Below are positions 53,341 to 56,803 of a stretch of DNA of 64,000 nucleotides, piece after piece. The DNA is taken from positions 1-64,000 of the forward strand of contig JAYZAY010000001.1 of assembly GCA_036339465.1 (NCBI GenBank), given 5' to 3'. Below the pieces are notes generated by a model. That model saw only the letters and a list, made by a program, of their open reading frames with translations, was not told the origin of the DNA and ran no database searches. Source of the DNA: Myxococcota bacterium (GTDB lineage Bacteria; Myxococcota; XYA12-FULL-58-9; JABJBS01). The position numbers and the translations under genes are program-made. Numbering within the stretch: position 1 is the first letter of the stretch; every line of letters starts with the position of its first letter.

Positions 53341-55269
53341 ATGAAAAGACTCTTATACAAACTGGTTTTACCACCAATAATCTGCCTGTTAGTCGCGACT
53401 TACGTCATGACTGAAGATAGAAATACGCTTAAGGTGCGTCGAGACCTCAGAGCGGCTCAAAGCCAATCCTTGGGGAAAATTGTACGTGCATGGAACCAAT
53501 TGACTCAAATTCAAATGGACCTTTTCACCAATCTGATAGAGTGGTCCGAAGCAAATCTTTATGTCAACTCACCAAGGCCACTACCTACCCAAATAATTCG
53601 AAAAACTGAGCGACTTCAGGCTTCTATTATTGCTTTAGATGCCCACATTCACAAAGAGTCGTCCTCGGTCAGCCAAACAAGCCAATTTTCGCTATCACGA
53701 TCCTTGGCCATCCTAGAGAGGCTCTCAGACACCAATTTGAGCATCCAACAACTTGCATCTTTAACCACCGAGGATGTTCCGCTTTTCATCAGCTTAGCCC
53801 AACGGTCCGTGGATCTAATGCGGCAACGTTTCCAAGAACAAGCTCTAGCGGAGCGACTGATTCTCGCAGAATTAACAAGAAATACACCCGAGCTTCACGC
53901 AATACCCATGGCAGACGTTGTGGCACTCGTTTTTGTTCTCACCGCTGCTCTTTGGATTCTCCTCGGCGCACTCAGCGTGAGCCGATTTATTCAGGAGCCC
54001 AATACCGGTGGCCTCTTTCATTCGCTTGAACAAGAAACTTTATTAAAGCGACTCAACCTACTTGAATCAGGCAATCTAGCTCTGGGGCGTCAAACTGAAC
54101 GCCTTCAAACGACCCTTTCGGCGGAGGAGCAAAAGCTCCGAACCTTGGAAACTGACCTCGCACTGATCCAACTTTACAACGAAAACCTCGTCAACAGTAT
54201 GCAATCTGGCTTGGTGGTTACCACAACCAATCTGGAAATCACGAACTACAATCGACGAGCCCAGGATATTCTATCCTTGAGTCGTGATTCCATTCGACAA
54301 AGCTTTAGGGACCAACCCCTCTGCACCACCATCCAAACAACCCGCCGAGATTTTGACCACCTTATATCTCAAGCCATTACAGCAGTTCGCTCCCAGCGAT
54401 TTGAGGCAATCAGTTATACCGCCCTGGATCGGAACCTTGTTTTAGACATTCGAATGGTGCCCATCAAAGATGGTCGAGGCAGTTGCCAAGCACTCATGTG
54501 GATGCTCGATGATATTTCTGAGGCGACCGAAATGAAGAACCAGCTCTATCTCGCAGAGCATATGGCGGCCGTCGGCCGCGTTTCGGCACAAGTCGCCCAT
54601 GAAATCCGCAACCCCCTCAGCGCCATAGGGCTCAATGCTGAGATGCTTGAGGAAGAATTCGCAACAGCCTTGCCTGAAACCCAGCAAAGCGAAGCACTCG
54701 CGCTCCTAAGAGCAATCGCCCGAGAAATTGAACGCTTGAACGAAATCACTGAAGATTATCTCCAGCTGGCTAGGCTACCCTCACCCAACCTCCAGCCCAT
54801 AGCTCTTAACCCCTTGATCTCAGATTTACTTACGCTTCTACGCCCCGAATTCGACAATCGTGGAATTTCTCTACAACTGAATATGCAAGTTCCAAATCCC
54901 GTCGTGCTGGCCGATAGCGGCCAAATGCGACAGGCGCTCCTTAATATAATACGTAACGCCCAAGAGGCGATGGCCGACGGAGGACTTCTTCGGTTGGAAA
55001 CGAGCCTCTCCGCTGAACACCTCATCATCACGATCGAGGATAATGGACCAGGTGTACCCACCGATGTTTCCCACCGAATCTACGAACCGTTTTTCACCAC
55101 GAAGGCTACAGGCACCGGACTGGGTTTGTCGCTCACCCAACAGATCATCCGCGATCACCATGGAAGTTTAGAGCTGCTAAATGTTGCCCCCCAAGGTGCG
55201 AGGATGTGTGTCCTTCTTCCATATGCCGCGCAAGAAACGCGAGAGGATAACCTAGAAAGCCCCAATTAA
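53341..55269 (+). CDS. Membrane sensor histidine kinase with PAS domain
   Basis: Two TM helices, PAS, AHEIRNPL, NIIRNA, DNGPG, FFTTK..GTGLGL. Confidence 0.92.
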   Translation: MKRLLYKLVLPPIICLLVATYVMTEDRNTLKVRRDLRAAQSQSLGKIVRAWNQLTQIQMDLFTNLIEWSEANLYVNSPRPLPTQIIRKTERLQASIIALDAHIHKESSSVSQTSQFSLSRSLAILERLSDTNLSIQQLASLTTEDVPLFISLAQRSVDLMRQRFQEQALAERLILAELTRNTPELHAIPMADVVALVFVLTAALWILLGALSVSRFIQEPNTGGLFHSLEQETLLKRLNLLESGNLALGRQTERLQTTLSAEEQKLRTLETDLALIQLYNENLVNSMQSGLVVTTTNLEITNYNRRAQDILSLSRDSIRQSFRDQPLCTTIQTTRRDFDHLISQAITAVRSQRFEAISYTALDRNLVLDIRMVPIKDGRGSCQALMWMLDDISEATEMKNQLYLAEHMAAVGRVSAQVAHEIRNPLSAIGLNAEMLEEEFATALPETQQSEALALLRAIAREIERLNEITEDYLQLARLPSPNLQPIALNPLISDLLTLLRPEFDNRGISLQLNMQVPNPVVLADSGQMRQALLNIIRNAQEAMADGGLLRLETSLSAEHLIITIEDNGPGVPTDVSHRIYEPFFTTKATGTGLGLSLTQQIIRDHHGSLELLNVAPQGARMCVLLPYAAQETREDNLESPN

Positions 55270-55361
55270 TTCAATGCTTACCATTTCCTTTCCGCTACTC
55301 TTGGCCGGTTTTTCCTTTGAATTGCGCTTTGGGGCGAAAAGGCCGTAGGCAAGAATGTGAC

Positions 55362-55389
55362 TTGACACAAATCCTGGTAGGTTTAAAAT
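55362..55389 (+). promoter_or_regulatory. Sigma70-like promoter TTGACA-N16-TAAAAT
   Basis: Consensus -35 and near-consensus -10, immediately upstream of the long hairpin. Confidence 0.55.
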
Positions 55390-55397
55390 CGCACTAC

Positions 55398-55503
55398 TGG
55401 GCCAATCTTGGGTTCGGGAGTGGTGTGATAAGTAGGTGACTTCTTCGTAGTAGCCAACTCGGCATCTGTTTGTCGCACCACTCGCGAAGCTGAGATCGGA
55501 CTG
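55398..55503 (+). ncRNA. Candidate structured non-coding RNA (long hairpin)
   Basis: 55405-55438 pairs with 55463-55496: 32 of 34 positions pair, including 7 G-U and no A-C; 24-nt loop; intergenic between convergent genes. Confidence 0.55.
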
Positions 55504-55627
55504 CACCTCGAATCAAAATCAGAAAAAATAACCTAGACAAGATGCTGCGGATAAAAAGCTGCTCACAAAGCTTTGATGGAACCTCTGTTCACAAGGTTTC
55601 AGCGTGTTGTTTACGGTAGCTGTGGTA

Positions 55628-56803
55628 TTAGTGAGCTGTGGCAACCTTGCGTCGCTCGTTGGTGGCTGGAGTTTTCCCTTCTTGGCGTTCCCGAATCACC
55701 TCATAGGTCATGGCAGCGACGCCAACAGAGGAGTAGGTCCCCACTATGACCCCGATAGCCAGCGCAATACTGAAATCACGAATAATACCTCCGCCCATAA
55801 GTAGAAGTGCAGCCACAACTAAAAGAGTGGTAACACTGGTCAGTAGCGTTCTAGACAGCGTTTGATTCACCGATGAGTTGACCAATTCCGTCGCCGGTCT
55901 ACCTTTAAACCTTAATGCGTTTTCCCGAATACGGTCATAAACAACGATTGTATCATTCAGTGAATAACCCACAACGGTAAGTATTGCGGCAATGATTGGG
56001 AGGTTAAACTCTATTTGAAACAAGGCGAAAACCCCTATCGTAATCAAGACATCGTGGAGTAGGGCAATAATAGCTCCTGGAGCGAAGGCTAGGTCAAAAC
56101 GGATTGCGACATAGATAAGGATAAATCCAAGTGCATAAATAATAGCTAAAACGCCCTGGTTTCTCAACTCTTCACCGACATGGGGACCAACGTATTCGGC
56201 ACGCTGAATCATCGCTTGGCTTTCGGGGACTTCATAGCCTGCCCTAAGCGCTGATTCAATCAAACCCGCGACGGAAACAATTTCGACTTGGTACTCAGGC
56301 TTATCATCCCGACCTCGTTTTAGGATGTTCTTAGTCTTCAGGTTTAAACCCGCAACCAGCGTCTCTAATTCGCCTTCCCCTACTGGCTTACCAAATTGCA
56401 CGGTAATCGACTCCCCACTTTCGGCCATCACCCAATTGAGGATCCCCTGGGCGCCTCCAGCGATCGCCTCCAACCCCGCCCGGACCTGGGCTTTTTTGGT
56501 TTCATCGAGGCTCCCCTGCTCCCTAATCATAATCAGCGCCTGCCTAGAATCACGACCACCAAATCGCTGAACGCGTACTTCCGATAACCCCAACGGGGCC
56601 AATAAATCTTTGACCTCGTTTTCCTGAAAATCCTTCGGGAATTCGACCTGTAGCTCGTAGCCACCCGCGAAATCGATACCGAAATTCAGCCCAAATAGCC
56701 CCACAAACAGCACAGATAAGAGGCAAGCAGTTGCAGACAGCTTCACAAAGACATCTCTTTTACCACTGAAATCGAAGTCAGCTTCACCTTGCATAATTTT
56801 CAT
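55628..56803 (-). CDS. secF: Protein translocase subunit SecF
   Basis: NFGIDFAGG, VGP.VG.EL, LLHDV, GYSLNDTIVVYDRIRE, TLSRT, GTYSS. Confidence 0.96.
   Translation of the reverse strand: MKIMQGEADFDFSGKRDVFVKLSATACLLSVLFVGLFGLNFGIDFAGGYELQVEFPKDFQENEVKDLLAPLGLSEVRVQRFGGRDSRQALIMIREQGSLDETKKAQVRAGLEAIAGGAQGILNWVMAESGESITVQFGKPVGEGELETLVAGLNLKTKNILKRGRDDKPEYQVEIVSVAGLIESALRAGYEVPESQAMIQRAEYVGPHVGEELRNQGVLAIIYALGFILIYVAIRFDLAFAPGAIIALLHDVLITIGVFALFQIEFNLPIIAAILTVVGYSLNDTIVVYDRIRENALRFKGRPATELVNSSVNQTLSRTLLTSVTTLLVVAALLLMGGGIIRDFSIALAIGVIVGTYSSVGVAAMTYEVIRERQEGKTPATNERRKVATAH

Follow-up and report, generated by a model that had tools for sequence, protein, structure and literature searches.

A long hairpin between a histidine kinase gene and secF

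The window analysed here is the first 64,000 nt of contig JAYZAY010000001.1 from the genome of a Myxococcota bacterium, designated G000. In it, a histidine kinase gene and secF converge on a spacer that holds a long hairpin (Table 1), the arrangement that the initial annotation had read from the same DNA. The recount of the hairpin agreed with that annotation in every figure: 21 uninterrupted pairs (55418-55438 with 55463-55483), extending at 55405-55438/55463-55496 to 32 pairs over 34 positions with seven G-U pairs, two G-G mismatches and no A-C. At the helix margin an A-C (55404/55497) and a G-A (55401/55500) mismatch occur, and pairs resume out to 55398/55503. Seven stems of at least 21 pairs exist genome-wide in G000, and the hairpin is the only one of these with a loop longer than 10 nt. 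Its sequence was identical in contigs of three studies, one of which is possibly the source sample itself.

Table 1. Features of the hairpin locus and of the predicted target gene (window coordinates unless a contig is given).
Feature	Position	Strand	Remarks
PAS/HisKA/HATPase histidine kinase gene	53341..55269	+	flanking gene, context
-35 hexamer, sigma-70-type	55362..55367	+	TTGACA
-10 hexamer, sigma-70-type	55384..55389	+	TAAAAT; 16-nt spacer; start site predicted near 55396
Candidate small RNA	55396..55505	+	rod of ~105-110 nt, both ends predicted; fold and conservation
Long helix, 5′ strand	55405..55438	+	contains the sequence-conserved block UGGUGUGAU
Predicted target-pairing segment	55444..55456	+	13 contiguous pairs with the target start
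GCCAAC	55453..55458	+	invariant (19/19 homologs); apical loop GCCA predicted to be unpaired
Long helix, 3′ strand	55463..55496	+
secF	55628..56803	-	flanking gene, context; last gene of queA-yajC-secD-secF; convergent
Predicted target, Lys/Ala-rich ORF, 83 aa	G000:C69, ATG at 726	-	unlinked; divergent from uvrB

Folding of 55396-55505 gave a z score of -5.76 on the plus strand vs. -2.63 on the minus strand, and the 221 nt originally delimited gave -3.57 and -0.84, respectively. The ~200-nt 6S-like fold once proposed from weaker outer pairings was not sustained. The pairing letters are present, but the first of them precede the predicted start site, and such a fold would take in the promoter itself; moreover, the outer flank-to-flank duplex was at shuffle level (-19.0 vs. 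-18.4), with p<0.05 in just 2 of 13 homologs.

The hairpin is a conserved single-copy element of one order

BLAST with the hairpin DNA returned no homologs among 60 relatives, and homologous hairpins were located through secF synteny, in the DNA downstream of secF. Using covariance models, which match their training sequences by construction, the element was found in 19 of the 22 genomes of the order at one locus each; the loci of G005, G007, G014 and G018 were detected by model R1 although they lay outside its training set. The upstream gene abuts secF in G002 (94% complete) and G010 (65%), neither of which is a carrier, and the spacer beside secF in G012 (100% complete) gave no element match. 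The element was absent from 129 other genomes of the phylum under model R2 with stricter filters. Two matches were rejected: a weak R1 match in G091, which sits in an apparent rpsO-pnp spacer and was gone under R2, and a second match in G006, which lies within coding-like sequence. No comparable long stem occurred within 900 nt past secF in any of 30 other-phylum genomes. An unrelated, near-perfect inverted repeat of ~38 bp, A+T-rich and strand-symmetric, lies ~620 nt past secF in G058 (L358).

Beyond these genomes, 120 loci retrieved by pattern from a genome collection were mostly chance matches; 117 were scored and six reached 69-99 bits, these six being labelled as Myxococcota or Deltaproteobacteria MAGs that may overlap the relatives and are given no separate count. 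Strong scores were obtained for 7 of 120 metagenome pattern loci, and phage sequences gave no convincing match. The Rfam search that the initial annotation had proposed returned no 6S, SRP or other relevant match for the window at E≤10, and only sub-threshold miRNA-type hairpin matches at two of 16 homolog loci. The literature covered, main texts lying mostly outside subscription journals, gave no description of the element or of such an sRNA/target pair in myxobacteria.

Collection of the homologs revealed the covariation that had been sought. In 20 sequences, whose alignment was fitted to the model, 20 of the 30 helix pairs had changed on both sides and 94.6% of the alignment cells were paired; core identity was 0.64, against 0.41 and 0.39 in the flanks. 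A tree-aware test, for which a SecF tree of 15 genomes served as the independent phylogeny, counted 36.5 same-branch co-changes vs. 12.5 (maximum 22) for re-dealt partners, and the tally on this tree was ~31 compensatory double, 59 pair-keeping single and 26 pair-breaking changes. The homolog helices contain 101 G-U and 9 A-C combinations when read on the plus strand. This excess fixes the strand as plus, extending across homologs the asymmetry first seen in the window, and together with the single copy in G000 it disposes of a dispersed, strand-symmetric repeat of the MITE or REP kind. The hairpin homologs share no conserved reading frame, the frames and stops of their mini-ORFs being variable. 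These results, namely covariation, strand bias and no shared frame, demonstrated a single-copy, non-coding gene with a conserved RNA structure on the plus strand.

The TTGACA-16-TAAAAT promoter reported earlier is present at 55362-55389 and agrees with the consensus at 11 of 12 positions, and promoter-like sites scored above shuffles (p≤0.05) in 12 of the 19 carrier genomes. A sigma-54 box look-alike inside the helix was dropped; it has GG at a position where the sigma-54 consensus has GC. The RNAs of family f3 (L152, L154, L157 and L158) have the promoter ~40 nt farther upstream in three of four cases and possess a common downstream block, which suggests 5′ and 3′ extensions. The hairpin could also be read as a cis element, a 3′ UTR or a terminator hairpin belonging to the kinase gene or the secF operon, consistent with its constant position 3′ of a co-oriented gene and with G008 and G020, where no clear promoter was seen. 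This reading is very improbable, as a U-tract follows the hairpin in just 3 of 19 homologs, terminator-like hairpins of secF itself intervene in G001, G003 and G004, the element is 3-4 kb away from secF in three f3 genomes, and the upstream gene swaps while the RNA persists: an M16-peptidase-like gene, labelled from its sequence, replaces the histidine kinase in some relatives.

The element is distinct from 6S, SRP and Y RNAs

The initial annotation had left open a novel sRNA or a divergent 6S or SRP RNA. In size and rod shape the element resembles the bacterial small SRP (4.5S) RNA (RF00169), but it gave no RF00169 match, and the helix-8 SRP motif, already reported as lacking in the window, was absent from all 19 homologs. 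With 6S RNA (RF00013) it has in common the long hairpin, a short GGUGUG motif and, in G000 alone, a 12-nt stretch of the genome's own 6S (p 0.01); it differs from the ~180-200 nt of 6S RNA with their central bubble in having about half the length, no bubble and no RF00013 match. Similarity at p<0.05 was reached in only 1 of 18 comparisons with SRP RNA, 1 of 16 with the own 6S and 1 of 19 with Escherichia coli 6S. Furthermore, separate SRP RNAs were found in all 19 carriers (canonical ones in 21 of the 22 order genomes) and separate 6S RNAs in 16 of the 19 (19 of 22). As G000 likewise has its 6S and SRP genes elsewhere, the hairpin is neither, and a diverged second copy of either RNA is hardly credible. 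Conservation, covariation, strand bias, single copy and promoter all speak for the first half of the earlier proposal, a novel plus-strand sRNA, whereas the second half falls with the canonical genes elsewhere and the chance-level similarity. The 6S gene lies on the same contig as the element at ~8-9 kb in G016 (C378, L396) and G011 (C121, L395), and on another contig in G000.

Compared with bacterial Y RNAs as described in PMC4201824, the element has a similar stem joining the 5′ and 3′ ends, a pyrimidine-rich top and a near-match to GNCGAAN0-1G. Unlike them, it has the exact motif in just 1 of 19 homologs and no tRNA-like arms, and the gene for Ro60 (TROVE) was found in none of the 22 order genomes.

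The loop is antisense to the start of a gene for a Lys-rich protein

The target lead was found post hoc, several earlier ideas having failed. tRNA-Sec was rejected, with the motif in 5 of 12 cases and the RNA also in genomes without a strong selC; a strong tRNA-Sec match occurs in just 12 of the 22 order genomes, patchily. The queA, yajC and secD leaders were rejected as well, their complementarity not being conserved. An initial scan across the genome, limited to 3115 ORFs of at least 120 aa, yielded nothing above shuffles, and with this threshold the 83-aa ORF was invisible. When the loop complement was sought before start codons in the two most divergent carriers, both gave the ribosome binding site of a Lys/Ala-rich ORF. 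The consensus RNA read antisense encodes Met-Ala-Thr-Ala-Lys-Lys, which was recorded first; a MATAKK N-terminus was then found in seven genomes (G003, G004, G001, G005, G006, G007 and G018), and a uvrB-adjacent target gene also in G000, G009, G011, G013, G015, G016, G017, G019 and G021. These seven and nine genomes form the 16 RNA/target pairs analysed, a set that leaves out G002 (uvrB at the contig edge) and G014.

The ORF has its own promoter (TTGAC-17-TA..T) in 12 of 12 cases checked, its start region in G000 was confirmed by contigs of two studies, and lysine makes up 52-63% of the target proteins whose composition was counted from the AUG. The protein had no Pfam match and was not found in the protein cluster collection; the NCBIfam H1-like model NF038053 scored 12.4 bits against a cut-off of 80 (E 0.14), which is sub-threshold and concerns a low-complexity protein. 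Composition and analogy suggest a histone-H1-like protein that would bind and condense DNA. RNA and target are not always found together. G010 has the target gene and lacks the RNA, and its leader carries neither UGGC; in G008, which retains the RNA, the 7.7 kb upstream of uvrB contain no Lys-rich ORF; and no predicted target turned up in G020 (84% complete). In a single case, G012, both are missing: this genome has no match to the RNA, and the DNA examined around uvrB contains no Lys-rich ORF. G008 encodes a 300-aa protein whose N-terminus is Lys-rich (C30 near 29707, L512), a possible target switch.

The GCCA of the loop, with a predicted mean unpaired probability of 0.87-0.96, is complementary to the ribosome binding site or start codon of the target in all 16 genomes for which RNA and target sequences were both available, weakly in four. 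Through this predicted accessible seed, the RNA matches the initiation region of an unlinked mRNA partially but in a conserved manner. Two registers were observed. In families f1, f2 and f3, the 5′ side of the loop is matched to AUG-GC and the codons that follow over 13-18 contiguous bp; the G000 segment matches target positions +2 to +14, 11 of its pairs being Watson-Crick, and the MATAKK genomes, in the order listed above, have runs of 18, 18, 18, 16, 16, 16 and 14 pairs. In families f5, f7 and f9, it is the 3′ side that pairs, over 7-10 bp plus an extension, and its partners are UUGGC, the Shine-Dalgarno and an upstream CCC; one G-A mismatch occurs, replaced by a U-A pair in f7. The two sides changed with the mRNAs. 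UUGGC has been lost from all five f1 mRNAs (G000 and four relatives), whose pairing lies at the start codon, and the 3′ side of the f1 RNAs has drifted or, in the window's copy, become shorter; AUG-GC has been lost from the mRNAs of G009, G013 and G019, whose pairing falls on the Shine-Dalgarno, and there the RNA 5′ side has drifted. A synonymous Lys codon difference between G001 and G003/G005 is mirrored in the RNA, and G004 has codon changes without compensation in the RNA.

Net duplex energies, opening costs included, were -7 to -22 kcal/mol. Against 25045 background starts, taken from G000 also for the relatives' RNAs, none equalled the perfect 18-pair matches of three genomes, and at most 33 paired equally well in 11 of 16 genomes, the worst being G013 (827). 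G013, G019 and G016 were modest also against 1500 background starts, 12-39 of which scored equally. The window's copy is among the weakest: its whole-segment duplex ranked 1320 of 25046 candidate starts, and seven other G000 starts have 13 contiguous pairs somewhere in -25 to +25. Its target is nevertheless the sole one of 2475 Shine-Dalgarno-led NUG-GC starts with at least 11 contiguous start-anchored pairs. With kinship left out of account, matched RNA/target pairs exceeded mismatched ones overall (permutation p 0.00025), but they were not better than same-family pairs (-4.2 vs. -4.85), so the covariation of RNA and mRNA exists at the family level only; it appears to rest on a few family-level events and one synonymous change. 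These results demonstrated complementarity and a family-level co-shift of RNA and mRNA; on the sequence comparisons, the sRNA family is real and apparently undescribed, and its predicted target is well supported.

Real pairing could still have another outcome, such as RNase III decay, control of several Lys-rich targets or titration of the RNA by an abundant mRNA. An RNase III gene is present, which would suit decay, and the G008 RNA pairs well with the start of the L512 gene (-43.9; none of 300 background starts as good). Against this, both registers sit exactly on the Shine-Dalgarno or the start codon, and another Lys-tailed protein of G000 (L546, C62:49153-49434, plus strand) has a leader that pairs with the RNA over just 4-6 bases; overall we regard such outcomes as unlikely. 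L546 is a 94-aa protein that combines a Lys/Ala/Pro-rich, H1-like tail with a bacterial histone fold, its best PDB match being 9qt0 (E 3e-9).

The target pairing leaves one feature unexplained. Helix columns 17-27 (window 55421-55431) are conserved beyond the needs of pairing: the 5′ U is retained opposite A or G, and a change to C-G nearly never occurs in this block or its homologs, GC-rich genomes included. This conserved mid-helix sequence suggests a protein-binding site, and may be a site for a protein or for RNase III. The whole RNA might accordingly be a protein-binding or decoy RNA, whose helix and loop bind some protein and whose complementarity to the mRNA is secondary or due to chance. 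The 18-pair matches and the co-shift of the registers stand against a decoy, and CsrA, which was not found in G000, joins Ro60 among the missing partners; we consider this reading improbable.

A predicted translational switch and its counterparts

The match between the loop and the start of a histone-like gene points to a likely sRNA that would switch off a predicted DNA-condensing protein. Our preferred reading, to which we assign a probability of about 0.78, is that the conserved single-copy hairpin is an sRNA of ~105 nt, probably made from its own promoter, whose loop would pair with the start of the H1-like mRNA and likely block its translation. The 30-bp helix would serve as a stable scaffold displaying GCCA, which would nucleate on a UGGC of the mRNA, either in the AUG-GC of Met-Ala or in the UUGGC immediately 3′ of the Shine-Dalgarno. 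Unzipping of the weak apical stems would then give 13-18 bp across the start codon and the first Lys codons or, in the alternative register, about 8-19 bp, interrupted by one G-A mismatch, across the Shine-Dalgarno. The ribosome would thereby be kept from loading, and Hfq would not be needed.

In the literature covered, regulation of a histone-like protein by an RNA is documented in Chlamydia, where it times chromosome condensation (PMC4355289; PMC3469542). According to these reports, IhtA is a trans-acting, Hfq-independent sRNA of ~107 nt with three stem-loops including a terminator; through a hairpin loop it binds hctA around the start codon (CAUGGCG) and represses translation of the histone-like Hc1, 7 bp being sufficient (PMC4355289). 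The element is similar in its predicted size, in opposing a hairpin loop to the start region of an mRNA whose product, by composition, is probably histone-like, and in a host, G000, in which no Hfq gene was found. It differs from IhtA as so described in its single 30-bp rod, the scarcity of U-tracts, the 13-18 bp or Shine-Dalgarno pairing and the two registers; the phylum is another one, and the target matches no Pfam family. Lacking the three-stem architecture, the element is not classed as a member of IhtA, and the likeness, compared by description, would presumably be convergence. Pxr of Myxococcus folds into three stem-loops, is driven by a sigma-54 promoter and lies behind pxrK-pxrR (PMC5684412). 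The element is like it in its myxobacterial, Hfq-less host, its predicted dependence on the loop and its position 3′ of a two-component gene, and unlike it in its one rod, its sigma-70-type promoter and the lack of an RF01812 match at the locus.

More tentatively, and with the odds somewhat against it, the order may have independently evolved a switch of the Chlamydia type, in which the sRNA restrains an H1-like nucleoid condenser until a compacted dormant or dispersal form is made, with GCCA as the pivot that lets the duplex slide between Shine-Dalgarno and start codon while control is kept. The RNA family would be new to Rfam, and its predicted target was read from sequence co-evolution in uncultured organisms. 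If true, the predicted control of the H1-like protein would be a second, apparently independent case; it would point to a recurring way of holding a toxic, DNA-compacting protein in check and hint at an undescribed change of cell state in the lineage. C-terminal Lys-rich repeats the same as those of the target were also seen in two long proteins, L500 and L503, which by our own reading are topoisomerase I-like.
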